Assembly: GCF_024298765.1 (NCBI RefSeq)
Contig: NZ_CP101211.1
DNA length: 64,000 bases
Source: Escherichia coli
Lineage (GTDB): Bacteria; Pseudomonadota; Gammaproteobacteria; Enterobacterales; Enterobacteriaceae
Reading direction: 5' to 3' (one strand)
Every line of letters starts with the position of its first letter. Within the stretch, counting starts at the first letter, position 1. The position numbers and the translations under genes are program-made. Below are positions 6,755 to 41,233 of the stretch, one piece after another. Under the pieces are notes generated by a model, which ran no database searches, was not told the origin of the DNA, and worked only from the letters and a program-made list of their open reading frames with translations.

Positions 6755-6825
6755 CTAACTTTGTTTTAGGGCGACTGCCCTGCTGCGTAACATCGTTGCT
6801 GCTCCATAACATCAAACATCGACCC
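6755..6825 (-). other. attI1 recombination site of a class 1 integron, apparently with no cassette
   Basis: 5'-conserved segment ...GTCGCCCTAAAACAAAGTTAGAT followed on the cassette strand by what I recall as the start of the qacE cassette, cut by IS26 at 6686; boundaries approximate. Confidence 0.6.
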
Positions 6826-6894
6826 ACGGCGTAACGCGCTTGCTGCTTGGATGCCCGAGGCATAGACTGTACAAAAAAACAGTCATAACAAGCC

Positions 6895-8994: not shown

Positions 8995-9361
8995 GAGTAC
9001 TCCTTGTTGAAAGGAGGGCTAGACTACCATTATACATATGCCAAGACATTAAAATAAAAGCCTGTTACATCAACACATTACAACCCCTCAATTTACCTGT
9101 TTTAAGTGGTCAAATTGGCGCGTAGAGCGCCTATCGCTCTTGCATTGGCACGCGGCCCTGTTGAAAAAAGTTATTCGCTTTAGATAGGGTTAGGAGAGCC
9201 GTGCTTCGCCGGTAAAAAATCGGACTATCCGACGCAGGGCGGACTCATCGGCGGAGAAGCAAACTTTGACTATATCTCCCTACACTTGGAAGAGGGCTAG
9301 ACTGGCCCCATAGATCACCAGACACTTCGACTCTCTTAAAATAAGAGGTAGTCTTGGAACT

Positions 9362-9553
9362 ATGTTTAATACCAGTCAGAACGATAAGATGGTTGAAGTG
9401 TTATCAGGACCTGAGCGGCGTCGGCGTCGTACACCGCAGGAAAAAATTGCCATTATTCAGCAGACTATGGAGCCCGGTATGACCGTGTCTCATGTCGCGC
9501 GCCTGCATGGCATCAATGCAAACCAGATATTCAAATGGCGCAAGCAATATTAA
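9362..9553 (+). pseudogene. IS2-like orfA with an in-frame TAA stop after codon 63
   Basis: ...QIFKWRKQY* then, in the same frame, [21 protein letters not shown]..., which matches the continuation of IS2 OrfA. Confidence 0.6.
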
Positions 9554-9870
9554 GACGGTTCACTGACGGCTGTTGCATCGGGCGAGGAAGTGGTGCCGGC
9601 CTCCGAACTCGCTGCCGCCAATAAGCAAATTCGCGAACTCCAGCGCCTTCTGGGCAAAAAGACGATGGAAGCCGAGATACTCAAAGAGGCCGTGGAGTTC
9701 GGCCGGGCAAAAAAATGGATTGCGCATGCGCCCTCGTTGCCTGGGAACGACGAATAAGCGACGTTTGCAGAAGTCTTGGCGTGTCGCGTGCGCAGTTGAG
9801 CATTCGGGTTCACCGGCCATCTGACTGACAGGATCGCAGACGGCAGCCCCGTTCTGACGATACCACCGTA

Positions 9871-13371: not shown

Positions 13372-14251
13372 GGCTCTGTTGCAAAAATCGTGAAGCTTGA
13401 GCATGCTTGGCGGAGATTGGACGGACGGAACGATGACGGATTTCAAGTGGCGCCATTTCCAGGGTGATGTGATCCTGTGGGCGGTGCGCTGGTATTGTCG
13501 CTATCCGATCAGCTATCGCGACCTTGAGGAAATGCTGGCGGAACGCGGCATTTCGGTCGACCATACGACGATCTATCGCTGGGTCCAGTGCTACGCCCCG
13601 GAGATGGAGAAGCGGCTGCGCTGGTTCTGGCGGCGTGGCTTTGATCCGAGCTGGCGCCTGGATGAAACCTACGTCAAGGTGCGGGGCAAGTGGACCTACC
13701 TGTACCGGGCAGTCGACAAGCGGGGCGACACGATCGATTTCTACCTGTCGCCGACCCGCAGCGCCAAGGCAGCGAAGCGGTTCCTGGGCAAGGCCCTGCG
13801 AGGCCTGAAGCACTGGGAAAAGCCTGCCACGCTCAATACCGACAAAGCGCCGAGCTATGGTGCAGCGATCACCGAATTGAAGCGCGAAGGAAAGCTGGAC
13901 CGGGAGACGGCCCACCGGCAGGTGAAGTATCTCAATAACGTGATCGAGGCCGATCACGGAAAGCTCAAGATACTGATCAAGCCGGTGCGCGGTTTCAAAT
14001 CGATCCCCACGGCCTATGCCACGATCAAGGGATTCGAAGTCATGCGAGCCCTGCGCAAAGGACAGGCTCGCCCCTGGTGCCTGCAGCCCGGCATCAGGGG
14101 CGAGGTGCGCCTTGTGGAGAGAGCTTTTGGCATTGGGCCCTCGGCGCTGACGGAGGCCATGGGCATGCTCAACCACCATTTCGCAGCAGCCGCCTGATCG
14201 GCGCAGAGCGACAGCCTACCTCTGACTGCCGCCAATCTTTGCAACAGAGCC
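13372..14251 (+). mobile_element. IS6100 (880 bp, complete)
   Basis: Terminal repeats GGCTCTGTTGCAAA at 13372 and at 14238-14251. Confidence 0.9.
13397..14197 (+). CDS. tnpA: IS6100 transposase (true start may be the Met at 13433)
   Basis: ...[39 protein letters not shown]..., an IS6-family transposase. Confidence 0.9.
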   Translation: MSMLGGDWTDGTMTDFKWRHFQGDVILWAVRWYCRYPISYRDLEEMLAERGISVDHTTIYRWVQCYAPEMEKRLRWFWRRGFDPSWRLDETYVKVRGKWTYLYRAVDKRGDTIDFYLSPTRSAKAAKRFLGKALRGLKHWEKPATLNTDKAPSYGAAITELKREGKLDRETAHRQVKYLNNVIEADHGKLKILIKPVRGFKSIPTAYATIKGFEVMRALRKGQARPWCLQPGIRGEVRLVERAFGIGPSALTEAMGMLNHHFAAAA

Positions 14252-14689
14252 CGCCGTGCTAGTCTGCTCGGTGATGGTGGAGTGAAGCCAACCCGCAATC
14301 GGGTTATGAATCTGCATCGCGATTCGCAATCAGCTGTCTCTTGAGCATGTCGAACTCCTGCGATGTTATCTCGCCGTGCTCGTGCTGCTACACCAACTTG
14401 TCCAACTCATCCGCCACACCGCTCCCCACCACCTGCGATGGCCAGGTTGTTTGCTGGGCGCATTGGCGGAGTATCGTCTCGACCCGGGACACCCACACCG
14501 GCACAACCTTACGGGAGTGATTCACTGTCAAAGAATCGGCCCGGTGCTCTGACGCAAGTATCGGGATGGTCACCATTTGTAAGCCGTAGACCTGAGTGGT
14601 GATCAAGACTTCGATACCACCGACCGTACCGGTACTAATCGACGACGGTCGTGTTCGTCGCCTGCCGCAGGGACTCTGCACACCTCCGT

Positions 14690-15274
14690 TTACGCATGTG
14701 CCTGGAGGAGTTGGAAATCGTCGTGTTCGGGAAACATTAAACACAGGATGGCAGCGATCTGAGCCAGCACATGATCAGCTAGCTCACCATCCGGATCGAC
14801 GGCCCACTGCATCGTCGCGCCAGCGATGACCGAGTGCAGGAGCAACTCAGCTGCCGCAGGAGCACCTGGGGGCAGTCGCTTGCGGATCCCCTCCACCACC
14901 GCGCGGTTCCGCTGGATCGCAAGCGTGCGTAGCTCCGGCACCTGGAGCTCGTACCAGGAGATGAGATAGTTCACCGAGAAGTCGTTGCGAGTGTTCATGC
15001 TCCGAACGAGCACCTGCAAAAATTCCCAGAGCCCTTGCGGCCCTGCGCCTATCGGTATCGCATTCAGGTAATGCCGCACCTGCTCGACGCCGCGCTCCAT
15101 CATCCTCACCAGCAGCGTATCGCGGTTGGTGAAGCGCTGGATTAACGCTGCGCGGGAGAGCCCCACCTCCTTTGCTACTCCGCTGAGCGTGAACTCTATG
15201 GGACCGCAACGCTTCAGCACTACGGTGGCGGCCTCGAGTACCTCGTCATCGGACTTGAGCTTGGGGCGGGGCAT
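14690..15274 (-). CDS. mphR(A): TetR-family repressor MphR(A)
   Basis: Identical to the 75-659 copy. Confidence 0.9.
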   Translation of the reverse strand: MPRPKLKSDDEVLEAATVVLKRCGPIEFTLSGVAKEVGLSRAALIQRFTNRDTLLVRMMERGVEQVRHYLNAIPIGAGPQGLWEFLQVLVRSMNTRNDFSVNYLISWYELQVPELRTLAIQRNRAVVEGIRKRLPPGAPAAAELLLHSVIAGATMQWAVDPDGELADHVLAQIAAILCLMFPEHDDFQLLQAHA

Positions 15275-16512
15275 CAGTGTTCACCTTCTGTATGGGTTGG
15301 GGCGGAGGCTGTGGCTGCCGCCGCCATTGTAGCAAATTGAAGACGGAGCGAGAGTAGAGCCACGAGCCCCGCAAACACGGCCGATACAACGAGGCCAGGG
15401 AGCGGACCAGCAAGGTCGACAAACGCGCCGGCCGCAAGCATAACCATGGGCGAGGCTGACAGCATCACCGCCGAGACCGTGCCGAGTACCCGGCCGAGAA
15501 GTTCTGGCGGCGTGCGGTTGTAGATGGCAGCGTTGAGAATGGGAGAGACTGAGCCGGTCAGCAGTCCCACGAGCGCGCCCAACAACATCAGCACCGGCAC
15601 GCCTGGCAACTGTGAAAGCAGAAGCGAGCCCACCGCAGAGCCACAAAATGCCACCGCCAGCCAGTTCTGCGCTGATATCCGGGCGCCGACCGACGCATGA
15701 ATGGCAATGCCAAGGAGACCACCAGCCCCCATCATTGAGGAGAACAGCCCGAGCTCTGCTACTTGGCGTCCTGCATCTACAAACAGCGCAGGCATGATGA
15801 CGCTGCCGTTGGCGCCAACGATGCCCACGAAGATCATCACTATACCAAAGAGAGGGCGCAGCAGGGGTTCGCTCCAGAGAAAAGCGACGCCGGCGCGCAT
15901 GGAGAGAGTCGCCGTCGTGGTCATCGTCCGAGCGGCACGCGCGGGAAGCACCCACGCGCCGAGCAGACCTGCAAGGACGGAGCAGAACGCCGTCAGCCCG
16001 AGCGTTGGCGCAGCGCCAAGCAGGCCGATTGCGGCCCCCCCAAGGGCCGGGCCACCTAGAATCGCGACGTTCCCGATCACCGCTTTCAGTGACGAGACGC
16101 GCTCAACGGAGAGCCCGGCGACGTGGCCGAGTTTGGGCAGCTCACTGTCCTGCGCGGCCATACCGGGTGCGTCGAACGCGGCACCGAGCACCACGCAAGC
16201 GATCAGCCCAGTGTTCGAGAGGGCGCCAACGGCATCGAGCAGTGGGATGCTCGCCATGGCCACGCCGCCCACCACACCCGAGATCAATGCGACGGGCGCG
16301 CGCCCGAACCGATCGACGAGGCCACCACCAACCCACGCGCCGATGATGGTCGCGATGACGCTGCTAGCGGCCGTGGCGCCCGCCCAGGCCGCGCTCTTTG
16401 TATGAGACAGGACGAACCATGGAAGCGCGAGGGCCGCCACCGCGTTGCCGATCCGGAAGAGAAAGGTCGCCGCGAACAGCGTCGCGAGCGGGCTATATCG
16501 ACGTTCGCTCAT
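15274..16512 (-). CDS. mrx: Mrx, MFS-type membrane protein of the mph(A) operon
   Basis: 412-aa hydrophobic ORF between mph(A) and mphR(A) with overlapping stop and start codons. Confidence 0.85.
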   Translation of the reverse strand: MSERRYSPLATLFAATFLFRIGNAVAALALPWFVLSHTKSAAWAGATAASSVIATIIGAWVGGGLVDRFGRAPVALISGVVGGVAMASIPLLDAVGALSNTGLIACVVLGAAFDAPGMAAQDSELPKLGHVAGLSVERVSSLKAVIGNVAILGGPALGGAAIGLLGAAPTLGLTAFCSVLAGLLGAWVLPARAARTMTTTATLSMRAGVAFLWSEPLLRPLFGIVMIFVGIVGANGSVIMPALFVDAGRQVAELGLFSSMMGAGGLLGIAIHASVGARISAQNWLAVAFCGSAVGSLLLSQLPGVPVLMLLGALVGLLTGSVSPILNAAIYNRTPPELLGRVLGTVSAVMLSASPMVMLAAGAFVDLAGPLPGLVVSAVFAGLVALLSLRLQFATMAAAATASAPTHTEGEH

Positions 16513-17446: not shown

Positions 17447-17480
17447 ACCTAAATGTAACAGTCACGTCGGTTATATTCAA
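17447..17480 (-). promoter_or_regulatory. mph(A) promoter and MphR(A) operator region (pseudo-palindrome)
   Basis: AATATAACCGACGTGACTGTTACATT pseudo-palindrome directly upstream of mph(A); limits approximate. Confidence 0.45.
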
Positions 17481-17483
17481 TCC

Positions 17484-18303
17484 GGCACTGTTGCAAAGTT
17501 AGCGATGAGGCAGCCTTTTGTCTTATTCAAAGGCCTTACATTTCAAAAACTCTGCTTACCAGGCGCATTTCGCCCAGGGGATCACCATAATAAAATGCTG
17601 AGGCCTGGCCTTTGCGTAGTGCACGCATCACCTCAATACCTTTGATGGTGGCGTAAGCCGTCTTCATGGATTTAAATCCCAGCGTGGCGCCGATTATCCG
17701 TTTCAGTTTGCCATGATCGCATTCAATCACGTTGTTCCGGTACTTAATCTGTCGGTGTTCAACGTCAGACGGGCACCGGCCTTCGCGTTTGAGCAGAGCA
17801 AGCGCGCGACCATAGGCGGGCGCTTTATCCGTGTTGATGAATCGCGGGATCTGCCACTTCTTCACGTTGTTGAGGATTTTACCCAGAAACCGGTATGCAG
17901 CTTTGCTGTTACGACGGGAGGAGAGATAAAAATCGACAGTGCGGCCCCGGCTGTCGACGGCCCGGTACAGATACGCCCAGCGGCCATTGACCTTCACGTA
18001 GGTTTCATCCATGTGCCACGGGCAAAGATCGGAAGGGTTACGCCAGTACCAGCGCAGCCGTTTTTCCATTTCAGGCGCATAACGCTGAACCCAGCGGTAA
18101 ATCGTGGAGTGATCGACATTCACTCCGCGTTCAGCCAGCATCTCCTGCAGCTCACGGTAACTGATGCCGTATTTGCAGTACCAGCGTACGGCCCACAGAA
18201 TGATGTCACGCTGAAAATGCCGGCCTTTGAATGGGTTCATGTGCAGCTCCATCAGCAAAAGGGGATGATAAGTTTATCACCACCGACTATTTGCAACAGT
18301 GCC
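17484..18303 (-). mobile_element. IS26 (820 bp, complete)
   Basis: 14-bp terminal repeats at both ends. Confidence 0.95.
17536..18258 (-). CDS. tnpA: IS26 transposase
   Basis: Identical translation to the other IS26 tnpA copies. Confidence 0.95.
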   Translation of the reverse strand: MLMELHMNPFKGRHFQRDIILWAVRWYCKYGISYRELQEMLAERGVNVDHSTIYRWVQRYAPEMEKRLRWYWRNPSDLCPWHMDETYVKVNGRWAYLYRAVDSRGRTVDFYLSSRRNSKAAYRFLGKILNNVKKWQIPRFINTDKAPAYGRALALLKREGRCPSDVEHRQIKYRNNVIECDHGKLKRIIGATLGFKSMKTAYATIKGIEVMRALRKGQASAFYYGDPLGEMRLVSRVFEM

Positions 18304-18596
18304 AGAGCGAGGCCCATTGACGCCACAACGTAGGCGAGGCCACCTCCCAGTAGAACGGGGCGGCGCCCCAGTCGGTCCGATAGCGGTCCAAACAAGAGCT
18401 GACCGGCACCAATCATGACCAAGTACGTTGTCAGCGTAAGCTGAATTGTGCTCGCTGTCGTACCAAGCGCGTTTGGCATAAACGGCACTGCTGGCAAGTA
18501 CATGTCCATGCCGAGTGATGCCAATAAATCGAACGGTGATAACAACAACACCGTGGCGGCAAGGGAGTACCGCCAACTAAAGTTTTTTGAGCGCAC
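18304..18596 (-). pseudogene. cmlA: cmlA chloramphenicol exporter gene, only the first about 97 codons (GTG start), cut by IS26
   Basis: VRSKNFSWRYSLAATVLLLSPFDLLASLGMDMYLPAVPFMPNALG... matches the CmlA N-terminus. Confidence 0.8.
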
Positions 18597-18916
18597 GAAA
18601 CCATCTCCTTGAACAAAGGATTTGGCGGCGCTCCCGTAGAGCAAAAGGATTCATGAGAACGCCGCAACAACCGAAAAATGAAGGTTGCTGCGGCTTACTT
18701 GTCTGCGTTCTTGGAAGTGCTCATCTGCTGACTATCTCATGATTGAATTTGAATCGTAACAACTTTCAAGCAACTCTGCGAGGAGCCTTATTGTGCGCCC
18801 AACGCCGCCATAAACGGCGACAGGGTGGCGCGCCTATTGCGCATAAAATGGCGAAGCCATGCGCAACAGGCGCGGAATCTCTGGCGTCCGGTTTGATGGC
18901 TTTGTTATGCAAAGGA

Positions 18917-19369
18917 CTAGTCTTCAATGACGTGTAAACCACGGCGCTTTAAGTCCTCTAACGAATCCAACATTCCCCTTATTAATTCAACAGGATGCCC
19001 CTCCCAGTCTTCAACAACGCCAACAATTCTCAAGGGTTCGCAGGTTCTATAGGACTGTGTTGGATTACCGGGAAATTTTTTGTTCGTAAGATTCGGATCG
19101 TCTTCGAACGGTCCTGTTGGCTCAACTATGTATATGTAGCCGCGACCCTCGAGGCCAGACAGTGACATAGCAAGTTCAGCTCCCCAAACTGCTGGCTCCA
19201 TCAAGGCTGAAAAGTAGATGTGCTTAAGAATACGACCGTCCTCGAAATGAGAGATGAACCCTGTGGTTAGCAAGTCACCAATCGCCAAATTGGCTTTGGT
19301 TCCATGATAGAACGGTCCTTGCACCTGCTTGTAATTATCATGAGAGATGGGAATCCAATCTTTTACCAT
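18917..19369 (-). CDS. arr: Rifampin ADP-ribosyltransferase Arr (arr-2 or arr-3 group)
   Basis: 150 aa from MVKDWIPISHDNYKQVQGPFYHGTKANL...; the supplied ORF extends upstream into the attC. Confidence 0.8.
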   Translation of the reverse strand: MVKDWIPISHDNYKQVQGPFYHGTKANLAIGDLLTTGFISHFEDGRILKHIYFSALMEPAVWGAELAMSLSGLEGRGYIYIVEPTGPFEDDPNLTNKKFPGNPTQSYRTCEPLRIVGVVEDWEGHPVELIRGMLDSLEDLKRRGLHVIED

Positions 19370-19399
19370 TTTAAGACCCTTAATTGTTGGGATTTGGCT

Positions 19400-19479
19400 G
19401 CATAACGTCGCTATCAATCGCGGAAAAGGCGTAGTGCGCGAAGCGAACGAAGCTTTTTGCCGTCGATTGCATAGCTTTG
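19400..19479 (-). other. attC of the dfrA cassette (approximate)
   Basis: Imperfectly palindromic stretch between the dfrA stop and arr, ending in a GTTATGC core. Confidence 0.4.
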
Positions 19480-19962
19480 TTAACCCTTTTTCCAAATTTG
19501 ATAGCAATAGTTAATGTTTGAAGTAAAGTGTTGCTCAAAAACAACTTCGAAGGTATTTGGAATACTCGGGAAGAAAACATCCCCCTCTGGCTCGATGTCG
19601 ATCGTCGATAAGTGGAGCGTAGAGGCCATGGGTAATGTTTCTCGGTAAATTTCTCCGCCACCAGACACTATAACGTGACCGGTGAATTCAGCTAGCCTGT
19701 CCATGGCCTCTTCGATTGACTGAAATACAACTACATTGTCATCATTTGATGTCCAACCTGAGCGGGTAACGACCGCGTATTTCCTATTGGGGAGTGCGCC
19801 CATAGATTCAAACGTCTTGCGACCCACCAGAAGCCACTGATTGTAGGTCAATGCTTTAAAAAGTAGCTGCTCCCCTTTCGCGGACCAGGGTATGTCTGGA
19901 CCGCAACCAATCACGCCGTTTTTCGCTTTCGCAGCCATCAATGATACTTTCAAGGTTCTCAT
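19480..19962 (-). CDS. dfrA14: Trimethoprim-resistant dihydrofolate reductase DfrA (dfrA5/dfrA14 group)
   Basis: 160-aa [58 protein letters not shown]...; first cassette after attI1. The allele is a best guess from the dfrA-arr-cmlA order. Confidence 0.7.
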
Positions 19963-19967
19963 CCTGG

Positions 19968-20040
19968 GTTAACTTTGTTTTAGGGCGACTGCCCTGCTGC
20001 GTAACATCGTTGCTGCTCCATAACATCAAACATCGACCCA
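19968..20040 (-). other. attI1 (second copy) with the GTTAACC cassette junction
   Basis: Same 5'-conserved segment as 6755-6825 but joined to the dfrA cassette. Confidence 0.6.
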
Positions 20041-20108
20041 CGGCGTAACGCGCTTGCTGCTTGGATGCCCGAGGCATAGACTGTACAAAAAAACAGTCAT
20101 AACAAGCC

Positions 20109-20553
20109 ATGAAAACCGCCACTGCGCCGTTACCACCGCTGCGTTCGGTCAAGGTTCTGGACCAGTTGCGTGAGCGCATACGCTACTTGCATTACAGTTT
20201 ACGAACCGAACAGGCTTATGTCCACTGGGTTCGTGCCTTCATCCGTTTCCACGGTGTGCGTCACCCGGCAACCTTGGGCAGCAGCGAAGTCGAGGCATTT
20301 CTGTCCTGGCTGGCGAACGAGCGCAAGGTTTCGGTCTCCACGCATCGTCAGGCATTGGCGGCCTTGCTGTTCTTCTACGGCAAGGTGCTGTGCACGGATC
20401 TGCCCTGGCTTCAGGAGATCGGAAGACCTCGGCCGTCGCGGCGCTTGCCGGTGGTGCTGACCCCGGATGAAGTGGTTCGCATCCTCGGTTTTCTGGAAGG
20501 CGAGCATCGTTTGTTCGCCCAGCTTCTGTATGGAACGGGCATGCGGATCAGTG
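20109..20553 (+). pseudogene. intI1: intI1 truncated after about 148 codons by IS26
   Basis: Same N-terminus as the 6895 copy; reading frame enters the IS26 repeat at 20554. Confidence 0.9.
20196..20224 (-). promoter_or_regulatory. Pc cassette promoter, hybrid variant (TGGACA / TAAACT)
   Basis: Identical to 6982-7010; drives dfrA-arr. Confidence 0.7.
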
Positions 20554-21373
20554 GGCACTGTTGCAAAGTTAGCGATGAGGCAGCCTTTTGTCTTATTCAA
20601 AGGCCTTACATTTCAAAAACTCTGCTTACCAGGCGCATTTCGCCCAGGGGATCACCATAATAAAATGCTGAGGCCTGGCCTTTGCGTAGTGCACGCATCA
20701 CCTCAATACCTTTGATGGTGGCGTAAGCCGTCTTCATGGATTTAAATCCCAGCGTGGCGCCGATTATCCGTTTCAGTTTGCCATGATCGCATTCAATCAC
20801 GTTGTTCCGGTACTTAATCTGTCGGTGTTCAACGTCAGACGGGCACCGGCCTTCGCGTTTGAGCAGAGCAAGCGCGCGACCATAGGCGGGCGCTTTATCC
20901 GTGTTGATGAATCGCGGGATCTGCCACTTCTTCACGTTGTTGAGGATTTTACCCAGAAACCGGTATGCAGCTTTGCTGTTACGACGGGAGGAGAGATAAA
21001 AATCGACAGTGCGGCCCCGGCTGTCGACGGCCCGGTACAGATACGCCCAGCGGCCATTGACCTTCACGTAGGTTTCATCCATGTGCCACGGGCAAAGATC
21101 GGAAGGGTTACGCCAGTACCAGCGCAGCCGTTTTTCCATTTCAGGCGCATAACGCTGAACCCAGCGGTAAATCGTGGAGTGATCGACATTCACTCCGCGT
21201 TCAGCCAGCATCTCCTGCAGCTCACGGTAACTGATGCCGTATTTGCAGTACCAGCGTACGGCCCACAGAATGATGTCACGCTGAAAATGCCGGCCTTTGA
21301 ATGGGTTCATGTGCAGCTCCATCAGCAAAAGGGGATGATAAGTTTATCACCACCGACTATTTGCAACAGTGCC
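20554..21373 (-). mobile_element. IS26 (820 bp, complete); right edge of the resistance region
   Basis: 14-bp terminal repeats at both ends. Confidence 0.95.
20606..21328 (-). CDS. tnpA: IS26 transposase
   Basis: Identical translation to the other IS26 tnpA copies. Confidence 0.95.
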
Positions 21374-21517
21374 ACGCAAAGACGTAATGAGCAGTGTATC
21401 CCCTGCCACAATACCCTCTTCAGGGATGCTGTCAGTGGACGTCCAGTACTGACCCGCCAGCAAAGAATGAAATCGCTCTAAACGGTCAATGCTATTTTTG
21501 CTGACCAGGTCACCCAT
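21374..21517 (-). pseudogene. Backbone gene of unknown function cut after 48 codons by IS26
   Basis: Ribosome-binding site then ATG at 21517; MGDLVSKNSIDRLERFHSLLAGQYWTSTDSIPEEGIVAGDTLLITSLR runs straight into the IS26 repeat. Confidence 0.5.
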
Positions 21518-21767
21518 ATACTTTTCCTTCCAGATTCGTGTGTTAGGTGAATCATACCAGATTGCCCTTGCCGTCTAATAACGCAGAAAACTGTGAATCC
21601 AAAATTCCTTAAATTCAAACCTGTCCAATATAAAAGATGGCTCTTTTTCTTATCCAGTGTTAAGCGATAATGCTCAATTTTATTTCATTATTGTCAGAAT
21701 CAAAATAATCTGAAAATAAAAAAGGCTTCAGAATTGAAGCCTCTATATTATACAACGTGAATGTATT

Positions 21768-22124
21768 TTATTTATCTTTCACCGGGTTCATTTCCCAGTA
21801 TCTTTCACGTACGTTTTCTTGGCAATGGTCCGCTCGCTCCGGCGTGTCCCTTTTACGAGTAGCAAATGCTTCAATTACGGCATTCAAGTCTTTTTCTTTG
21901 ATTTTAGATCCAACAGGCAAGTTTTCTTCAAACTCAGTCCTTACCAGTTCTTTCGTTTTTTTATAATCGGTTTCACTTTGGATTTCAGGTTTTAAACAAA
22001 TATCGGCAACCATCACATCTGATTTGCCCGGGATCGGTTTTTTCCCGTTTTCAGATGCAAGGACCGCAGAGGAGGTAAAGGCGACAGACAGAGTTGCACA
22101 TAACAGAAGGTATTTTAATTTCAT
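21768..22124 (-). CDS. Hypothetical secreted protein (signal peptide)
   Basis: MKLKYLLLCATLSVAFTSSAVLA... signal-like N-terminus; 118 aa. Confidence 0.5.
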   Translation of the reverse strand: MKLKYLLLCATLSVAFTSSAVLASENGKKPIPGKSDVMVADICLKPEIQSETDYKKTKELVRTEFEENLPVGSKIKEKDLNAVIEAFATRKRDTPERADHCQENVRERYWEMNPVKDK

Positions 22125-22273
22125 GACTCACTCCATGATTATCAATGATGGTTGCTCAGACACATCATTTATACCATGCCTGTCACCGAATACGAGATCC
22201 CCATATTTTGGCTTTAAATATTATCCAATAGGGTTTCATACACCTGGCTTCTGAAAGCAAGGTTCAAGGAGCT

Positions 22274-22891
22274 TCAGGGGGAAATCAGATTGTTGTCGAC
22301 CCAGTACTTGTGCAAACCTACCACCCAATTCCTGGAAATGGACGAAAGTTCATGCGCCAGTTCACGACAGCATTCAGGCGTAAAAATACGTATGGGTCCT
22401 GAAGTACCGATATCAACAGACATGATAAACTCCAGAATGTTGCCATGGCATAGGTTGTTTCTCAGCCTGACAATTTCTGCTTCAGGTGTTCTCCCGGCTG
22501 CTACCTTAACCAACATATCCTGCTCGGCTGGAAATGAAAGTAATTCTACCGGCACCCCTTCCTGCTTGGCCTTTCTCAGTAAGGCATTACTCATTACGGA
22601 GATACCCTCCAAGTCCACCAGCTCAGGAGCTGCATGCTGATCGTTAACTGTTGGTTTCAGCATCAGCGACTTCAACGTAACCATGAGTGATGTTTCAATC
22701 CCGTTCAGGAAGCTCGTACAGGCCGGTATCCATAGTTCGTGATGCAACGCCTCGGTTGCTTGTTTAAAGAACCAGTCAATCACGGGGACAGTGTGATAAT
22801 CATAATAGTGATTTATCTCGCTGAATCTTGACATATAAGCATCGTACTCAGCCTGGTCTTCAGGAGATAAAAAATTTGGTGGGAGGGGCAT
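22274..22891 (-). CDS. Hypothetical protein
   Basis: 205-aa ORF divergent from umuD. Confidence 0.45.
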   Translation of the reverse strand: MPLPPNFLSPEDQAEYDAYMSRFSEINHYYDYHTVPVIDWFFKQATEALHHELWIPACTSFLNGIETSLMVTLKSLMLKPTVNDQHAAPELVDLEGISVMSNALLRKAKQEGVPVELLSFPAEQDMLVKVAAGRTPEAEIVRLRNNLCHGNILEFIMSVDIGTSGPIRIFTPECCRELAHELSSISRNWVVGLHKYWVDNNLISP

Positions 22892-23047
22892 CAGAATCCT
22901 TTCATCCTAGCTTGTATACCTTCTTCGTAGGCCAGCTCGCCATTATCGGTAAAAGATGGTTTTTGGTGTTTGTGACAAAGCTTAATTTTTCGTCAGGCTC
23001 GATAGCGTTACCGGAGAGATTTGATCTTTTCTCTGTAACTCGCAATA

Positions 23048-23063
23048 CTGTTTATACATACAG
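23048..23063 (+). promoter_or_regulatory. LexA (SOS) box upstream of umuD
   Basis: CTGTTTATACATACAG matches the CTGT-N8-ACAG consensus, about 20 bp before the umuD start. Confidence 0.75.
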
Positions 23064-23084
23064 TATGAGAATTCGAGTGTAGCT

Positions 23085-23519
23085 ATGTCTGTTATCCTTG
23101 AGCACATTAGCAACAAGCCTTACGAAATGGCACCTTTTTTCAGTGATTTACTGAGCTGTGGAGTGATGAGTCCGTGCGCCGGGCATGAAGATAATGAATT
23201 AAATTTGCATGAATATGTAGTCCGTAACCGCCCCTCAACCTTCTTTGTCAGGGCGGCGGGCCTCAGTATGATCAATGCCGGTATCAATGATGGCGCTATT
23301 CTGGTTGTGGATCGGTCTTTAACGGCACGACACGGCTCTATCGTCGTTGCGCTGGTGGATGGAGAGTTCACGGTAAAGATCTTACACACGTATCCTGAGC
23401 TGCTTTTGATGCCTTCTAATCCAGCCTATAAGCCGATACGTGTAAATCCCGAATCCCTTGAGATATGGGGCGTCGTCACCTTTGCACTGAATCAGTTTAG
23501 CCATGTACATGCACGTTGA
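23085..23519 (+). CDS. umuD: UmuD/MucA-like S24 peptidase (error-prone polymerase accessory subunit)
   Basis: LexA-like C-terminal domain; start/stop overlap with the downstream Y-family polymerase gene. Confidence 0.8.
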   Translation: MSVILEHISNKPYEMAPFFSDLLSCGVMSPCAGHEDNELNLHEYVVRNRPSTFFVRAAGLSMINAGINDGAILVVDRSLTARHGSIVVALVDGEFTVKILHTYPELLLMPSNPAYKPIRVNPESLEIWGVVTFALNQFSHVHAR

Positions 23520-24762
23520 TATTAACGGGGCCTATGCGGCATTTGAGTGTGCGATGGATCCCAAGCTGGCAAAAAAGCCGCTCATCATAGCCAGCAATAA
23601 CGATTCGTCCGTCATTGCAATGAATAAACTGGCTAAAAGCGTTGGTATTAAGCGTGGGACCCCAATTTTTAAGTGCAGGGATTTGATTCAGCAACACCAG
23701 ATCGAAGTCCGGAGCTCTAACTTTACTTTGTATGAAGACTACTCAAATCGCTTCCATGAAACGCTGGAAAGCTTCGCGCCTCAATCGAGTCGATATAGCA
23801 TAGATGAAAATTTCATGTTATTGAAAAACATGAACAAGATAATAGATTATGAAGATTACGGCCGGTTGATCAGAAGTACACTTCTTCATAATCTGTCCCT
23901 TACCTGTGGTGTGGGGTGTTCAAGCACCAAAACCCTGGCTAAATTATGCACCTATGCGAGCAAACGATGGGCAGCTACAGGCGGGGTTGTAGTTTTGACT
24001 GATCAGGCCAGGATCAGGAAGCTCCTGGGCCTTATCAGTACCAGAGAAATATGGGGTATTGGTCAAAAGATCAGTGAACGCCTGTCGGCTTTCGGGATCA
24101 TCACTGCCGGTGATTTTTATAATAGCGACGTTCGCTTTTTACGTAAAAGCTTTGGCGTTGAAATCGAGCGTACCTGGCGGGAACTGCATGGCGAACCATG
24201 TTTCCGGCTGCATGAATCCCCTCCTGTCCGGCAACAGATTATCGTTTCCAGAAGTTTTGGTCAGCGCCTTAATGAGATAGGCAAGCTACATGAGGCAGTT
24301 TCATTTTTTACCGCCCGGGCGGCAGAGCAGCTGCGCAAGGATGGCTCGTGGACCCGTCAAATCACAGTCTTCATTCAGAGCAGCAATTATGCGCAAGGTG
24401 AAAACCGCTACAGCAATTGTGGTATCGAGCCGCTTACCGCTACACAGGACACCCGCGATCTGGTTGATGCAGCCATGACCATCCTGAACCGCATTTACAA
24501 ACCCGGGATAGCGTATGCGAAAGCTGGGGTAATGCTCTCCGCTATGACTGACGGCACAGAGCAACTCAGCCTGTTTGATGAGCGCCCGGCCAGGCCTGGC
24601 AGTCAGGCACTGATGAAAGTTATGGACCGGTTCAATAAAGAAAAGCGCGGAGCTCTGTTTTTGCTGGGGGAAGGCATTCAACAGGATTTTCGTATGAAAC
24701 AGGCCATGCTATCACCGAGATATACGACCCGCTGGGATGAATTACTCGTTGTAAAAGCGTAG
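23503..24762 (+). CDS. umuC: UmuC/MucB-like Y-family DNA polymerase
   Basis: 419-aa ORF starting ...HVDINGAYAAFE... with a typical Y-family layout. Confidence 0.8.
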   Translation: MYMHVDINGAYAAFECAMDPKLAKKPLIIASNNDSSVIAMNKLAKSVGIKRGTPIFKCRDLIQQHQIEVRSSNFTLYEDYSNRFHETLESFAPQSSRYSIDENFMLLKNMNKIIDYEDYGRLIRSTLLHNLSLTCGVGCSSTKTLAKLCTYASKRWAATGGVVVLTDQARIRKLLGLISTREIWGIGQKISERLSAFGIITAGDFYNSDVRFLRKSFGVEIERTWRELHGEPCFRLHESPPVRQQIIVSRSFGQRLNEIGKLHEAVSFFTARAAEQLRKDGSWTRQITVFIQSSNYAQGENRYSNCGIEPLTATQDTRDLVDAAMTILNRIYKPGIAYAKAGVMLSAMTDGTEQLSLFDERPARPGSQALMKVMDRFNKEKRGALFLLGEGIQQDFRMKQAMLSPRYTTRWDELLVVKA

Positions 24763-24781
24763 CGGCCATGACCGGCATGGC
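24761..24781 (+). terminator. Hairpin between convergent umuC and the DsbA-like gene
   Basis: GCGGCCATG-accgg-CATGGCCG stem-loop; no clear T-tract. Confidence 0.35.
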
Positions 24782-24807
24782 CGTACTCATCAAAAGTGAA
24801 AGTAACT

Positions 24808-25617
24808 TTAGGCCCCGCGAGCTTTTTCGATTGCGCCCTGCAAAGTTGCTGCGTCCATAGCCCCGGGGATAAATGTGGTAGTCGCCGCATTCGGCTTTTT
24901 CATATTCATAATGATGAAGCCGGGTGTGCCGGTGATCCCAAGCGCTTCGCCCAGCTGCATGTTGCCGGAGATCACGTTTTCATATCGGTTTTTTTCCCTG
25001 TCAGAAAACGTGCTGTTAAACCCTGACTTATCCACCACAGTATTAAAGTCGCTGAGTTCGAATTTGCGTTGAGAGGTCATGAAGGTATGAGCCACAGCCA
25101 TCAGGTTGTTGTGGTATTTACGATAGGCTTCAGCACCGAAATTCTGATAGACGTGCAGACCCGTAGCGGCCCCCATGGCAGATACAGGTTTTGAACCGGC
25201 AAAAATCGGGAATTCTTTAAAGAAGAATTTTACATCTTTGCTCTGATTCATTACCGATTCAACAACAGGTGTAACCCGCATGCAGTAAATACACTGATAG
25301 TCGAAGAACTCGATTACCGCGACGTCGGCGTCATCCGGGCCGATGTTTGGCGTCTCCTTGGTATCCAGCAGAGCTGGCGCATATGGAATTATTCGTTCCA
25401 CTGAGGCACTTACGTTCTGATTTTCCAGCGCCTTACCTGCTTCCACTAAATAATGGGGATTTTTTACCAGGTAAGTAGCGGCAATTTTGCCAATTTCTTC
25501 CTCACTGAGCACCTTCGGTTTAAAATAAGTTGCCGCGATTAACGCCGAGGCAGCGGTAGCAATTACCGCAGAAATTAAAATCGTGGCCATCGGTTTTAAA
25601 TAAAATTCTTTAGACAT
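24808..25617 (-). CDS. DsbA-like thiol:disulfide oxidoreductase (thioredoxin fold, CIYC motif)
   Basis: N-terminal membrane or signal segment plus a CxxC active site (FFDYQCIYCM). Confidence 0.65.
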   Translation of the reverse strand: MSKEFYLKPMATILISAVIATAASALIAATYFKPKVLSEEEIGKIAATYLVKNPHYLVEAGKALENQNVSASVERIIPYAPALLDTKETPNIGPDDADVAVIEFFDYQCIYCMRVTPVVESVMNQSKDVKFFFKEFPIFAGSKPVSAMGAATGLHVYQNFGAEAYRKYHNNLMAVAHTFMTSQRKFELSDFNTVVDKSGFNSTFSDREKNRYENVISGNMQLGEALGITGTPGFIIMNMKKPNAATTTFIPGAMDAATLQGAIEKARGA

Positions 25618-25723
25618 AGCTACCTTTATGCTTTTCAGCCTGTTAGTTATTAACCTGCGATGGATTATACTGGCCCGGTAAATCGGAATTATTCGTGAAA
25701 CAATGCTTTTTGGAGATTAAAGG

Positions 25724-26335
25724 ATGATTAGGCAGGGCTTTATACTCACAACCGCAATGCTTTTGAGTGGTTGTGGATATCATTTCGCAAACCAGGTAGA
25801 TGCGTACGATCTAATGCCTCGTCCTGTTACAAATAAAAGGTTTCAGATAGTCCCTCCGGACGAAAGTATTCAGTCCAGAATGTTTTCAGGCCGTTTTGCT
25901 GATGGATTAGCAAAAAAAGGAGTCATTATTTCCACTCACCAGCCAGATTATGTGCTCAGGTTCCGAATGAGCAGCTCACAGGAGAACATGCAGTATAGCG
26001 AGCAGCTTCTTACTGGGGTGACAGGCTACGTTGTAGATAAAAAGACAACGAGAACTGACAAGCATGGCGAATCGCATACTGACTATGACTACAGGCCGGT
26101 CGATGGGGTAATAGGCACTGAGACGATGTCGCAGATGCACTATATGCGACAGCTGGATGTCGAGGTATACCCGTCAGCGAAAGGAGCAAAGCAGGTTCTG
26201 AAAGTGAGTATGCAAAGCAATGCACCTGTGCCGTCAGACAGCATTGCTTATTCAGCAATGATCGACGCCTTTACTGATAAATTTGATGCGCCGCTGCGTT
26301 CCGGAAATTATGTTGCAGTGATCCCCTGGAACTGA
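25724..26335 (+). CDS. Hypothetical lipoprotein
   Basis: Lipobox LLSGC near the N-terminus. Confidence 0.55.
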   Translation: MIRQGFILTTAMLLSGCGYHFANQVDAYDLMPRPVTNKRFQIVPPDESIQSRMFSGRFADGLAKKGVIISTHQPDYVLRFRMSSSQENMQYSEQLLTGVTGYVVDKKTTRTDKHGESHTDYDYRPVDGVIGTETMSQMHYMRQLDVEVYPSAKGAKQVLKVSMQSNAPVPSDSIAYSAMIDAFTDKFDAPLRSGNYVAVIPWN

Positions 26336-26394
26336 AAGCAGACGGCGGGAAGAGAATGTTCAAAAGTGACTTTTGGACACGCACATAAACGTGG

Positions 26395-26817
26395 CTATCG
26401 CCCTCCCCCATTAAAATCATAAAGTCGGTAAAGATCGCCCATCGTGATGGAATTGGGCTTATTAATGATTAGATACTGTAACTGTTCTTTATGTTGAGTA
26501 CTGGCGGCTGCATTCATAAGCACTTCCAGGTAGAACTTGTAGCCTATGCTTCGCTCTGAATACATATACTGGAACTGCATCAGTAAAATGCCTGACATAA
26601 CATACAACAGCAGCAGACTGAGTAACACAGTGCTATCAGGCTGTTCCAGTGCCATACTGACATACCCTGAACCCAGAATGCACAGAAGCCAACCCGTCAT
26701 TAGAGCAGGCACCCTACGACTCAGACGTTCATAACAACGTTTTATTACGGGATCCCGGAGATACTTTTTGTCAGGTATCCCCGTTGCCCTGATGACGAAG
26801 TTACTGAGTATCGACAT
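26395..26817 (-). CDS. Hypothetical membrane protein
   Basis: Hydrophobic segments; 140 aa. Confidence 0.45.
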   Translation of the reverse strand: MSILSNFVIRATGIPDKKYLRDPVIKRCYERLSRRVPALMTGWLLCILGSGYVSMALEQPDSTVLLSLLLLYVMSGILLMQFQYMYSERSIGYKFYLEVLMNAAASTQHKEQLQYLIINKPNSITMGDLYRLYDFNGGGR

Positions 26818-26850
26818 CTTTTTTCCTTCTGGACGCTCTCAGTCAATAAA

Positions 26851-27249
26851 TCAGGCCAGGCGCTCATTGAAAGCTACCACGAGCTGCGAATCGGGATTTT
26901 TTACCAGTTCGGGCCGGATAACTTTTAGTTGCCTCGTTGGGGCGAGCTCATCTGTAGGCCTGATGGTGGTATTACCCGGCCCCTTGCGGGTACTGTCGGT
27001 GTTTACCTTGAGCTTTTTATTTCCCAGGTAGCTTTCCATCTTTTTAGAGATGGTGTCACCTGTGGTCGCAACACCAGAGAGTTCCTTTAGTTGTTCACCT
27101 TGATCCATTTGTACCGATGACATCAGAAATACGATTCCTGGATCGTTTTCCGTTCCACAGGCTCCGTACTGACATTGTGCAGCGAAAACGGGCTGTACAC
27201 CTACAGCAACCAGCATTAACGTACTCAGTAAAGTAGATTTCATACACAC
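26851..27249 (-). CDS. Hypothetical secreted protein
   Basis: Signal-like MKSTLLSTLMLVAVGVQPVFA; sits directly downstream of the DsbC-like gene. Confidence 0.5.
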   Translation of the reverse strand: MCMKSTLLSTLMLVAVGVQPVFAAQCQYGACGTENDPGIVFLMSSVQMDQGEQLKELSGVATTGDTISKKMESYLGNKKLKVNTDSTRKGPGNTTIRPTDELAPTRQLKVIRPELVKNPDSQLVVAFNERLA

Positions 27250-27262
27250 CTCTTACAGTCGG

Positions 27263-27275
27263 AAAAGTTACTTTT
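27263..27275. repeat. 13-bp palindrome AAAAGTTACTTTT (backbone motif copy)
   Basis: Exact copy; overlaps the DsbC-like stop codon, 14 bp before the next gene start. Confidence 0.8.
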
Positions 27276-28017
27276 GCGCAGCGCCCATTTGGGTCACCAG
27301 GTTTTCCGGGCTCAGCCACCCCGTAAATAACTGCGGTTTGCCGCTTAGTGTCACCATGGTAGGAGTACCTTGCAGCGGGATTGTTGAGGCCACCTGGAAA
27401 TGCGATTTGATAATGTTTAAGCAAGCCTCATCAGGACGTCCTTCCGGGATAGTTGAAACCGGATTCATCGCTGCATCCAGAGCTTCGTTTGGCTTTGCTG
27501 AACACCAGATTTTGGCCATGTTCCCGGCTACTACCGAGTTCAGTCCTGCACGTGGGAATGCAAGAAACTTAATCGAAATACCGGCATCAAGATAAGACTT
27601 CAGATCATGATGCAGTTTTTGGCAGTATCCACAGGTTATATCGGTAAAGATAGCAAGCCGGTATTTTTCGTTTGGTGATTTGTAGTCGATGGATTTTGTT
27701 TTGGATGCGAATTCCCGGACGCCCATTAAAATGGCCTGCTCAGTGGTGTTTACCACATCTTTACCTTTCACGTGGAATAAGCTTCCGGTAAAAATGTAAT
27801 CTCCGTCTTTGCTCACGTAACTTACCCCCTCCCTGGAAATCACCGTAAAAATATCTTTTACTGGCGAGGGTTCGACGTGCTCGATTGAAAGCCCAATGGC
27901 TTTGAGCTTATCCCGGGCTGCATCTGGCAGTACCATTGTATTAACCGGCTCGGCATTCATCGTGAAGGCGGTACTTAATGAAAGAAGTAATACCGATGCC
28001 TTAATAATTTTTTTCAT
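27268..28017 (-). CDS. DsbC-like disulfide isomerase (CGYC motif)
   Basis: Signal peptide, dimerisation-type N-domain and a thioredoxin domain with CGYC. Confidence 0.7.
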   Translation of the reverse strand: MKKIIKASVLLLSLSTAFTMNAEPVNTMVLPDAARDKLKAIGLSIEHVEPSPVKDIFTVISREGVSYVSKDGDYIFTGSLFHVKGKDVVNTTEQAILMGVREFASKTKSIDYKSPNEKYRLAIFTDITCGYCQKLHHDLKSYLDAGISIKFLAFPRAGLNSVVAGNMAKIWCSAKPNEALDAAMNPVSTIPEGRPDEACLNIIKSHFQVASTIPLQGTPTMVTLSGKPQLFTGWLSPENLVTQMGAAQK

Positions 28018-28164
28018 TTATGCTCCTTGAATCGAGCACTAATATTATCACGCCCAAAAATTCCAGAATTTTGCTTAAACGCTTAAATCAACGGGTAAAG
28101 CCGAAAGAAAGTCGATAGATATATGGGAGAATAGATAAAACGTAGATTCAGTGGAGAAATCGTT

Positions 28165-28704
28165 GTGTTTACACCACCAGCAGATGATGTGAAACCTATT
28201 CCCGTTCCTGATGAGATTTACACTCAGTGCATTACGGATGCCGCCCGCTTCTTCGGAATTGATGCCGAACTGGTTTTTACGTTGTTTGACAATGAAGGCG
28301 GTAAGGTTGGTACTTTCAGCAGGAATACTAACGGCACTTATGATATTGGCCCGATGCAGATCAACTCATCCAATCTGCCTGAAATAAAAAAGCATTTCCC
28401 GACTGTAACGTGGCGGGTTCTGGCTTACGATGCTTGCGCTAGTTTCTGGGTTGGAACATGGTGGCTCTACAGAAAAATTGTTGATCGCAAGGGCAATGTG
28501 TTTGAAGGGATTGCAGATTACAACAGCAAAACCCCAAAGGTACGTGCAAAGTACATATTTAACTTCATGGTAAAGTACAATCGCCGGATCCAGCAGCGTA
28601 ACGGGATGGGTGAGCTTTATCAATGGACCCAACAACCTCCTCGATACAATGGCCATATAGCTAAAAATGTCCCGGAGCAAAACCCGACTCCTGTTGTTAA
28701 ATAA
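28165..28704 (+). CDS. Lytic transglycosylase-like protein (transfer-associated)
   Basis: SLT-like motifs (GPMQIN); size and position typical of a conjugation-associated transglycosylase. Confidence 0.55.
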   Translation: MFTPPADDVKPIPVPDEIYTQCITDAARFFGIDAELVFTLFDNEGGKVGTFSRNTNGTYDIGPMQINSSNLPEIKKHFPTVTWRVLAYDACASFWVGTWWLYRKIVDRKGNVFEGIADYNSKTPKVRAKYIFNFMVKYNRRIQQRNGMGELYQWTQQPPRYNGHIAKNVPEQNPTPVVK

Positions 28705-28786
28705 ATTCAACCTGATATTACAGAAGATCATCGAGTAGCTTGGGTACCCCCCCGCAAAAAATTCGCATAGACTCAGGGGTAATAAA

Positions 28787-29353
28787 TTGTCTTTTTCTGC
28801 AAGAAATATATTTAAGATTCTCTCTTCTTTCTTGATGCAGAAAAGCCCTCTTCATGAAGAAGTATGTGTTCCTGAAGAAACAACAGCTGGTTTATGGGGC
28901 CCTCTCCCTGATTCGCATGTCGTGCTTTTCTTAGATTTCGATGGGGTTTGTCACAGGTGCAAAAATGAAACCTTTGAGCGAATGCCATTGGTGGAAAAAT
29001 TACTGGATAAATGCCCTTCCATGGTGATTGTCATCTCCAGTTCGTGGCGTGAATGTGCCAGTATAACTTACCTGAAATCTCTTTTCCGGCTACCTTATAG
29101 AGACAAAGTCATAGGTGCTACCGATTCGGTATATTTAAAACCTAATCAGTCAGGTGTGCGGGCTGCTGAGTGTGAGGACTTTGTATTTTCACATCGAGTT
29201 AAAGCATTTATCTGCCTTGATGACGACGAATCATTATTCCCGGTCGGTTATCCACATTTGCAAAAAACCAATTATTACACCGGCCTCACCGAATCTGATC
29301 TTGCAGCTCTTAACACCAGGTATCATCTGCTTATGAAACGTTGGGCTTCCTGA
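28787..29353 (+). CDS. HAD-like hydrolase-fold protein, function unknown
   Basis: VLFLDFDGV matches HAD motif I (DxDG). Confidence 0.45.
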   Translation: MSFSARNIFKILSSFLMQKSPLHEEVCVPEETTAGLWGPLPDSHVVLFLDFDGVCHRCKNETFERMPLVEKLLDKCPSMVIVISSSWRECASITYLKSLFRLPYRDKVIGATDSVYLKPNQSGVRAAECEDFVFSHRVKAFICLDDDESLFPVGYPHLQKTNYYTGLTESDLAALNTRYHLLMKRWAS

Positions 29354-29356
29354 ATT

Positions 29357-29368
29357 AAAGTAACTTTT
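29357..29368. repeat. Backbone palindrome copy (12 of 13)
   Basis: AAAGTAACTTTT directly after the HAD-like gene stop. Confidence 0.7.
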
Positions 29369-29460
29369 ACGGAGAGCATGCCCGCATTATCAGTTCTATG
29401 CTTCTCCATTTCTGCCCCGGGTCAAAGCATTGCACAGTTGGAAGAAAACATGCCGGTCTC

Positions 29461-30750
29461 TTAAGCTTGCTGCTCAGTTTGGTTCCGGTGCTGAAAAACC
29501 TGCCAACGGTGCTTTAGGAATTCAGTATTGATGGGTTTACGCAGCGGCTTAATAAACTCTCCTTGATATGCCGCTAAATCATGATCTACCGCCAAAGCTT
29601 CAGCGAGAATGTTAACCTCCAACGTCACCGGATGAATGGCAATCATGTTTGCGTCGAAAAGATCGTGTATATCATGGCGTAAGAGCAACCCATTTGTATA
29701 ATGGTCTACTCCTCCGTTACGATGCTCCATCAGATGAGCAGCCTCAGTGCGCTGGCGCAGTCTAGAGCCTGTAATCACACATTGGTCATAACAGTTGTTG
29801 CGGACGGCTTCTGCAAATGAGGCCTGATCTGGTCGTGTCTCGACAGTTGTCTTACTACCCTTACGCTTACCCGGTACAGTAGTTTCATCAGGAATATTCG
29901 GCTGAAGCTCCTTTTCTTCTATACCATCAGTCTTCATAGCGACCATAATCGCGGCCGGTGGAGATTTAGGCTGATCTTCCTGCGATCTTTCGCGGCCACC
30001 AACTGGATACCCTAGAAAACCCTCAATGATCTCTAGTGGAGGTAATGTAGCGTTTGAACGTGCATAAATAGCGAACTCTGCGGCACGTCCGCCGGGAATA
30101 TATCTACGTACCAGTATTGGAAGAGAGGCTTCTTCATCTGGTTCCTCTTTTTCCGACAGGATTATTCGTTCGGTGAGACGGGCTGAATTTTTTTTCATTT
30201 CACTCAACAGTCTATTGCGTTCTTTTACCTTTCGGTCATTATCCTCCAACATCTTACGATGACTAACCTTAGCCAGATGGTCTTCCAGTTCCTGTATATA
30301 TTCGGGATCGATAGTATCAATTAGACCGAACGCCATCAACCGCTCCCCCCTTGTTTTACAAGATTCTAGCCGAACGCGAATGTACTCCTTACGCTTGGCC
30401 ATCAAATGTTCTTTTTGTTTTTTTTCTCGAATTACACGGAGCTGAGTATTGTAATTAGAATAAACGGTTTCGCTATTCTGCTCTGTCTCTAGAGCAAATT
30501 TTTGTAGGTGTTCACGTAGTTTTTTACGGGTATTTTTGGGGGCATGCATTACGGTACGCTCAATGTATGAGCCTGTGCAGCGTAAAGAAAGTACAGTTTC
30601 AGCATGGGAATAACCAGCATTGAGACGATAGCGGGCAATTTTAAGCAAATTATTAAAGTGTGCACCATTACATATACCTAGTTCTTCCAAGACACGACGT
30701 TCTCTATCATTAATAGATGGATGGTTAATATCTTTTACTTTGTTTGCCAT
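29461..30750 (-). CDS. HNH-endonuclease-domain protein with a long charged N-terminal region
   Basis: C-terminal CYDQCVITG...AHLMEHRNGGVDHYTNGLLLRHDIHDLFD is an HNH-type motif; the N-terminal 300 aa are Lys/Glu/Arg-rich. Confidence 0.6.
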   Translation of the reverse strand: MANKVKDINHPSINDRERRVLEELGICNGAHFNNLLKIARYRLNAGYSHAETVLSLRCTGSYIERTVMHAPKNTRKKLREHLQKFALETEQNSETVYSNYNTQLRVIREKKQKEHLMAKRKEYIRVRLESCKTRGERLMAFGLIDTIDPEYIQELEDHLAKVSHRKMLEDNDRKVKERNRLLSEMKKNSARLTERIILSEKEEPDEEASLPILVRRYIPGGRAAEFAIYARSNATLPPLEIIEGFLGYPVGGRERSQEDQPKSPPAAIMVAMKTDGIEEKELQPNIPDETTVPGKRKGSKTTVETRPDQASFAEAVRNNCYDQCVITGSRLRQRTEAAHLMEHRNGGVDHYTNGLLLRHDIHDLFDANMIAIHPVTLEVNILAEALAVDHDLAAYQGEFIKPLRKPINTEFLKHRWQVFQHRNQTEQQA

Positions 30751-41230: not shown

Positions 41231-41233
41231 GGT

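Follow-up and report, generated by a model that had tools for sequence, protein, structure and literature searches.

Does a backbone gene that is cut by the outermost IS26 of a resistance region tell us where that region was originally inserted? The question is raised by a stretch of 64,000 nucleotides of Escherichia coli DNA (hereafter the window), in which an open reading frame with a ribosome-binding site runs, after 48 codons, straight into the terminal repeat of an IS26. The original prediction took this cut as the place where the resistance region had been inserted, and expected the remainder of the gene, probably beyond the left edge of the window, to define the size and the target of the insertion. 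We confirm that a true backbone gene has been cut and that the stub forms the right-hand edge of the resistance region. However, comparison with related plasmids leads to another reading: the stub is very probably the dead 5' remnant of an IncHI2 backbone ORF, left at an IS26 edge which is an inherited deletion scar and not an insertion site, and which was reached in six steps. The features of the locus are collected in Table 1.

Table 1. Features around the right-hand edge of the resistance region (positions are those of the window).
Feature	Position	Strand	Description
intI1 fragment	20109-20553	+	148 codons, then cut by the inner end of the IS26 at 20554-21373
IS26	20554-21373	- (transposase)	820 bp, complete; outermost copy, right side of the resistance region
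Read-through tail	21347-21373	-	8 codons and a stop that come from the terminal repeat of IS26
5' stub	21374-21517	-	First 48 codons of an IncHI2 backbone ORF; allele WP_000502667.1 (388-aa chimera), descended from the 1111-aa WP_000502666.1
Native upstream region	21518-21767	-	AAGGA; promoter-like hexamer pairs 21716-21687 and 21656-21627 and terminator-like hairpin 21744-21721 (hexamers and hairpin from a consensus scan only)
Upstream backbone ORFs	21768-22124 (118 aa); 22274-22891 (205 aa)	-	Accompany the gene of the stub in IncHI-type plasmids

The element that abuts the stub has all the attributes of IS26. In addition to its length of 820 bp, both of its 14-bp terminal repeats are exact (GGCACTGTTGCAAA) and it carries a single transposase gene (20606-21310, minus strand, 705 nt), identical to the copies annotated WP_001067855.1 in related plasmids. 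We then compared the 8-mers around it. The left one, GATCAGTG, is unlike the right one, ACGCAAAG, and an 8-bp target-site duplication is therefore absent at this copy; this does not affect its identity as an IS26 but means that it is not a simple insertion. On its inner side, the ORF 20109-20660 encodes the N-terminus of IntI1 and continues into the IS26. This intI1 fragment belongs to a dfrA14-arr-2-cmlA6 fragment integron remnant, an arrangement which is also found in plasmid pXJW9B277-HI2-N.

Since no IS26 repeat was found rightward of 21373 in the window and the DNA there is continuous backbone, this copy is the last one on the right side. Indeed, positions 21374-29933 match an uninterrupted IncHI2 backbone with 99.86% identity over about 8.5 kb, with umuD/umuC from 23085, after the 118-aa and 205-aa ORFs, and dsbA-like genes further along; positions 39001-64000 are IncHI2 Tra1 backbone at 100% (MOBH/TraD Tra1 region). 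About 42 kb of the window beyond the IS26 is IncHI2 backbone. The assignment of the window to IncHI2 is made from this backbone, the replicon genes falling outside the window, and consists of a collinear, high-identity match to IncHI2A-typed plasmids (umuDC, dsbA/dsbC-like genes and the MOBH Tra1 region).

The stub starts with an ATG at 21517-21515 on the minus strand, preceded by GGAAGGAAAAGTAT, and the ribosome-binding site AAGGA (21525-21529) lies 7 nt from this ATG. From there, 48 codons lead to 21374 and to an IS26 beyond which no other was seen, just as had been claimed. The 144 nt of the stub show no difference from the start of the gene in pM160133_p1, a single one from the intact 388-aa allele (NZ_CP027411.1) and two from the 1111-aa allele, and 47 of its 48 residues are identical to those of the R478-type protein. 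Given this match to gene starts in relatives, the stub is a real gene start and no chance reading frame. Homology to the intact allele ends exactly at the edge of the IS26, where ...CTTTGCGT is followed by GGCACTGTTGCAAA in the window and by TACGTTGAAGAT in the intact allele. The 250 bp upstream of the stub (21518-21767), in which the terminator-like hairpin closes the preceding gene, are identical to the intact locus in NZ_CP027411.1, so that the stub may still be transcribed. Together with the tail taken from IS26, it forms an ORF of 56 aa (21347-21517), listed in RefSeq as hypothetical protein WP_152919720.1, and the identical 171-nt CDS is annotated in pSTM6-275 and pXJW9B277-HI2-N.

The backbone flank of the stub was found by megablast in 925 plasmids, essentially all of them large conjugative IncHI2 replicons. 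In the R478-type IncHI2 plasmids, the gene that begins with the 48 codons of the stub is 3336 bp long (5384-8719 of the R478-type locus examined) and encodes a hypothetical protein of 1111 aa (WP_000502666.1); it is followed by a 171-aa ORF and then by a 163-aa ORF. At least 80% of the length of this gene is present in 298 PLSDB records. A second allele, encoding 388 aa (WP_000502667.1), is intact and annotated in 17 plasmids, for example in the S. Heidelberg plasmid NZ_CP027411.1, at 8417-9583 of the locus extracted from it. The gene is thus coding in related backbones, as anticipated. The 388-aa protein is an in-frame fusion of residues 1-239 of the 1111-aa protein with residues 14-163 of a membrane protein, encoded by the 163-aa ORF located two genes 3' of the 1111-aa gene in R478-type plasmids, and comparison of the backbones attributes this chimera to a deletion of 3.8 kb. 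Its RefSeq entry is that of an ordinary hypothetical protein. As the fusion is present at the empty site described below, 3.8 kb of backbone had been lost in the lineage of the window before the resistance element arrived, and the idea that the insertion had hit the original gene finds no support: the target was already a deletion-derived chimera before any insertion. Membership of the 1111-aa family would call for homology over about 1100 residues, of which residues 1-48 alone remain in the window; the stub consequently descends from this family but cannot be a functional member of it, and we regard it as a dead pseudogene fragment.

We searched for the rest of the gene. By blastn with the R478-type locus and with the intact 388-aa locus, no match to the gene past nt 144 was detected in the window, which agrees with the proposal that the remainder lies outside it. 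The second part of this proposal, a partner half located beside another IS26 with an 8-bp duplication, found no support. In the window and in 83 kb (98,000-181,000) of pXJW9B277-HI2-N, a segment that spans both resistance regions (two loci) of this plasmid, no other IS26 end is adjoined by ACGCAAAG or CTTTGCGT; elsewhere these 8-mers occur only within IS26 itself or at unrelated sites of the backbone. Moreover, nt 145-745 of the gene are absent from the records of the lineage, in each of which the 144-bp stub is the sole match to the 3336-bp gene.

A probable earlier stage of the locus is preserved in pM160133_p1. In this plasmid, 719 bp homologous to the R478 allele and a further 26 bp are followed by 57 bp of a Tn1721-type inverted repeat, then by an IS26 in the same orientation as that of the window. 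The 57-bp remnant ends with ...GGTTCCCCC, which is the Tn1721-type 38-bp repeat. Relative to pM160133_p1, the window lacks exactly 658 bp (57 + 26 + 575) adjoining the IS26. The proposed check for a deletion at the junction points to one: a near-identical relative, a candidate predecessor, has its IS26 further out, and the product is devoid of both the intervening DNA and any duplication. The 745-bp state of pM160133_p1 probably preceded the 144-bp state, as judged from this comparison, but the plasmids in the 719-bp state need not be its direct ancestors.

The other Tn1721 repeat (...GGGCTCCCC) is found in pXJW9B277-HI2-N, where it abuts TTTAAGATTTTGG..., a backbone sequence homologous to the DNA downstream of the R478 gene. 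Once the two junctions are co-oriented, TTTAA adjoins the Tn1721 repeat at both of them (as TTAAA, its reverse complement, in pM160133_p1). Such a 5-bp direct duplication is typical of the Tn3 family. We therefore predicted the empty site, made of the two flanks and a single TTTAA, and observed it with 100% identity over 319 bp in NZ_CP027411.1 and in 17 records overall. The 38-bp repeats, the 5-bp duplication and the empty target of a Tn1721-family insertion are all found in relatives and none of them within the window. They place this insertion at nt 745 of the 388-aa chimera, 601 bp further in than the IS26 junction. The surviving 3' part of the ORF (420 bp, from nt 741) abuts the right repeat of Tn1721 and not an IS26, and this Tn1721-IRR/TTTAA/3'-ORF junction occurs in 617 records. 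It is from these relatives that we infer where the 3' part of the gene lies in the replicon of the window, and that it is there at all: the complete replicon is expected to contain the Tn1721 IRR (...CGCAGAATTCTGCGGGCTCCCC), then TTTAAGATTTTGGCAAGC, with the final 420 bp of the ORF after it.

The distance between the two halves of the gene varies among relatives. In pSTM6-275, the 3' part is collinear with the stub and 11.5 kb away from it, with the tet(A) module of Tn1721, the tnpR of Tn21, In27 (dfrA12-gcuF-aadA2-qacEΔ1) with a sul1 fragment, and IS26 in between. In pXJW9B277-HI2-N, 51 kb separate the halves, which are in inverted orientation, and the interval includes 11 kb of backbone. Their spacing is therefore no measure of "the insertion", contrary to what had been expected, and nt 145-745 have gone. 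More broadly, as TTTAA marks a Tn1721-type insertion that came first and lies 601 bp further in, the IS26 junction is secondary, and the gene cut by the outermost IS26 does not reveal the original insertion site of the resistance region.

In pXJW9B277-HI2-N (124,987-176,552), a backbone segment of about 11 kb, with thermonuclease, cytosine methyltransferase, DUF1173 and DUF4942 genes, is inverted with respect to the umuDC side and sits between the two resistance regions, while the order in pSTM6-275 is collinear. This indicates that the inversion would be a later, large rearrangement within the lineage. An inversion mediated by Tn1721 as the primary event was considered and rejected, since the TTTAA repeats are direct, the empty site exists and pSTM6-275 is collinear.

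Transposons that are hybrids of Tn1721 and Tn21 are reported in IncHI2 plasmids of ST3 and ST4 (PMC7355605), and a sul1 disrupted by IS26 was noted in an IncHI2 plasmid (PMC5923156). With their 38-bp repeats, TTTAA duplication and empty target, the relatives considered here resemble the known Tn1721 and Tn1721/Tn21 hybrid insertions of IncHI2, the element between the halves in pSTM6-275 being of the hybrid type. The window differs from them in that the IRL end and 601 bp of the target have gone, hence no feature of Tn1721 is left at its boundary. The insertion site also differs, being a chimeric ORF near umuDC here and tnsA in the ST4 plasmid (PMC7355605).

Taken together, these comparisons make the following six-step history very probable. 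The starting point would be an R478-type IncHI2 plasmid with the 1111-aa gene followed by the 171-aa and 163-aa ORFs. In the sub-lineage of the window, the 3.8-kb deletion would then have fused codons 1-239 to codons 14-163 of the 163-aa ORF, giving the 388-aa chimera. A Tn1721 or a Tn1721/Tn21-hybrid transposon would next have entered the chimera at nt 745, with duplication of TTTAA, and an IS26 would have inserted into this transposon, all of the IRL end being removed except 57 bp. These 57 bp and 601 bp of the ORF would subsequently have been lost through the same IS26, which brought its terminal repeat against nt 144 with no target duplication; the loss may have come about through intramolecular replicative transposition into nt 144/145, or through an insertion there and subsequent recombination between two IS26. 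Finally, exchange, expansion and, in some relatives, inversion driven by IS26 would have altered the interior, the junction being inherited unchanged. It is from sequence comparison that we infer the order of these events, the mechanism of the deletion and the content beyond the left edge of the window.

Adjacent deletions free of duplication are a known product of intramolecular replicative transposition by IS26. As the 719-bp and 144-bp states do not share the DNA inward of the IS26, a one-step adjacent deletion would also need a later exchange mediated by IS26. In the other route, a second IS26 would insert at nt 144/145 with an 8-bp duplication and then recombine, by a homologous or a Tnp26-dependent conservative event, with a direct copy at the IRL remnant, deleting 658 bp and one IS26. 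Its product would be what we observe, namely a single IS26 without duplication in the orientation seen in pM160133_p1, and directly repeated copies of IS26 are numerous in the window and in its relatives; however, no plasmid with a pair of IS26 bracketing nt 145-745 was seen among the matches inspected. We hold this second route for a realistic possibility, though one to be entertained only tentatively. The two deletion routes would lead to the same product and are indistinguishable by sequence, and the second is a variant of the deletion-scar reading which does not contradict it.

A true alternative to the deletion scar is the arrival of an IS26-bounded resistance region, as a pseudo-compound transposon or a cointegrate, at codon 48 of an intact gene, the other half of which would stand at a far IS26 with an 8-bp duplication. 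The stub does abut an intact terminal repeat of IS26, and the left edge of the window falls inside the resistance region, with the far boundary beyond it. Nevertheless, the flanks differ and no IS26 with a matching 8-mer is present in the window or in the 83 kb of the closest relative, records that bear the junction hold no other piece of the large gene, the 3' piece that survives starts at nt 741 beside a Tn1721 repeat, and an intermediate exists with 719 bp and a remnant of the Tn1721 IRL. We therefore consider such an insertion highly improbable. Equally hard to believe is that the 56-aa ORF (48 native codons and 8 from IS26) has been kept as an expressed and useful new small protein. Both its promoter-like region and its ribosome-binding site have been kept whole and match the parental locus exactly, and the ORF, annotated by RefSeq, is present in 319 plasmids, but these copies are identical by descent and offer no variation that could reveal selection. 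Of the beta domain (residues 24-104) in the AlphaFold model of the 1111-aa protein, its 48 native residues comprise the first strands only, and stubs of 719 bp, 91 bp or 50 bp are tolerated in other plasmids. The RefSeq entry WP_152919720.1 is an artefact of fusion to IS26 and belongs among the pseudogene fragments.

A probe of 184 bp (40 bp of IS26 and the stub) was fully matched in 319 PLSDB records, all IncHI2 plasmids, hosted by Salmonella, E. coli, Klebsiella and Enterobacter. What lies inward of the junction IS26 varies among them: it is a fragment of sul1 in pSTM6-275 and one of intI1 in pXJW9B277-HI2-N, as in the window. The latter plasmid, pXJW9B277-HI2-N (NZ_CP068042.1) is 99.98% identical to the window over positions 17476-25965 (40514-49001 of the locus extracted from it), and this closest relative covers 76% of window positions 1-25000 in one place. 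Both pXJW9B277-HI2-N and pSTM6-275 (NZ_CP019647.1), which are IncHI2(+IncN) plasmids, share with the window the IS26/144-bp junction and the backbone to its right, and pXJW9B277-HI2-N also shares the intI1 fragment-dfrA14-arr-2 segment to its left; they differ from it in the interior of the resistance region.

The junction is comparable to the adjacent deletions by IS26, or "IS26 signature" junctions, of multiresistance regions in Enterobacterales: a truncated gene ends at an intact IS26, no 8-bp duplication is present, and the junction passes down the clone and can serve as a marker. Parallels in IncHI2 plasmids are the reported truncations of intI1, mefB and sul1 (PMC7355605; PMC5923156). 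What sets the present junction apart from reported signatures is its place, nt 144 of a backbone ORF, and its appearance in public records merely as a hypothetical protein. We found no explicit account of it in the papers on IncHI2 plasmids that were consulted, which include the two studies cited (PMC7355605; PMC5923156). The scar is thus ordinary and already contained in hundreds of public IncHI2 plasmid sequences, though undiscussed. The junction of CTTTGCGT with GGCACTGTTGCAAA provides a fixed lineage marker of a size suited to PCR for the 319 sequenced IncHI2 plasmids and, used with the Tn1721-IRR/TTTAA junction, could serve to track the lineage and to orient assemblies of the resistance region.

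We also examined the protein whose gene was lost. For the 1111-aa protein, at least 371 homologues were counted (1100-1190 aa, 36-58% identity), on plasmids and islands of Enterobacterales, Burkholderiales and Rhizobiales, and many residues are invariant across the family. It had no match in Pfam, NCBIfam or PHROGs, and a PDB sequence search returned nothing below E=0.5. The sole PADLOC match, to KwaB (E=0.003 over 70 residues), was treated as due to chance. With the AlphaFold model (pLDDT 78, pTM 0.57), Foldseek against the PDB gave coiled-coil noise only and no convincing structural neighbour. No conserved partner gene was found downstream of the family members. Their neighbours vary (umuDC; an orphan N6/N4 methyltransferase; Acb1/AcrVA2-like/DUF3846; GmrSD_N with an AAA ATPase), and some of them look like defence or anti-defence genes. 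This context hints at a role in plasmid establishment, anti-defence or defence. That the family has a new function of this kind, in which case its loss in a successful multiresistant IncHI2 sub-lineage would be meaningful and not incidental, is a speculation that we consider rather unlikely to hold.

Several other features were observed further left in the window. An inverted pair of IS26 (5867-6686 and 7577-8396) encloses an 890-bp integron fragment (5859-8404 with flanks). Both outer flanks of this pair are the 8-bp sequence CAATTTTG, and the site is uninterrupted in pXJW9B277-HI2-N. The pair cuts qnrS1 (8397-8994, minus strand, start at 8994) after codon 199 of 218, and this quinolone-resistance gene is for that reason probably inactive in the window. 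The closest relative has no equivalent of about 470 bp (5052-5519), and a lone terminal repeat of IS26 lies at 5539-5552.

At the left edge, a perfect duplication in inverted orientation, at least 1418 bp long (1-1418 and 13931-15348), runs off the window. It contains the end of mrx(A), mphR(A) and a part of IS6100, so the macrolide-resistance module is probably present twice, in opposite orientations. Next to the left arm, an IS26 copy (1419-2200) is truncated at 2200 to 782 bp, and a complete IS6100 is located at 13372-14251.
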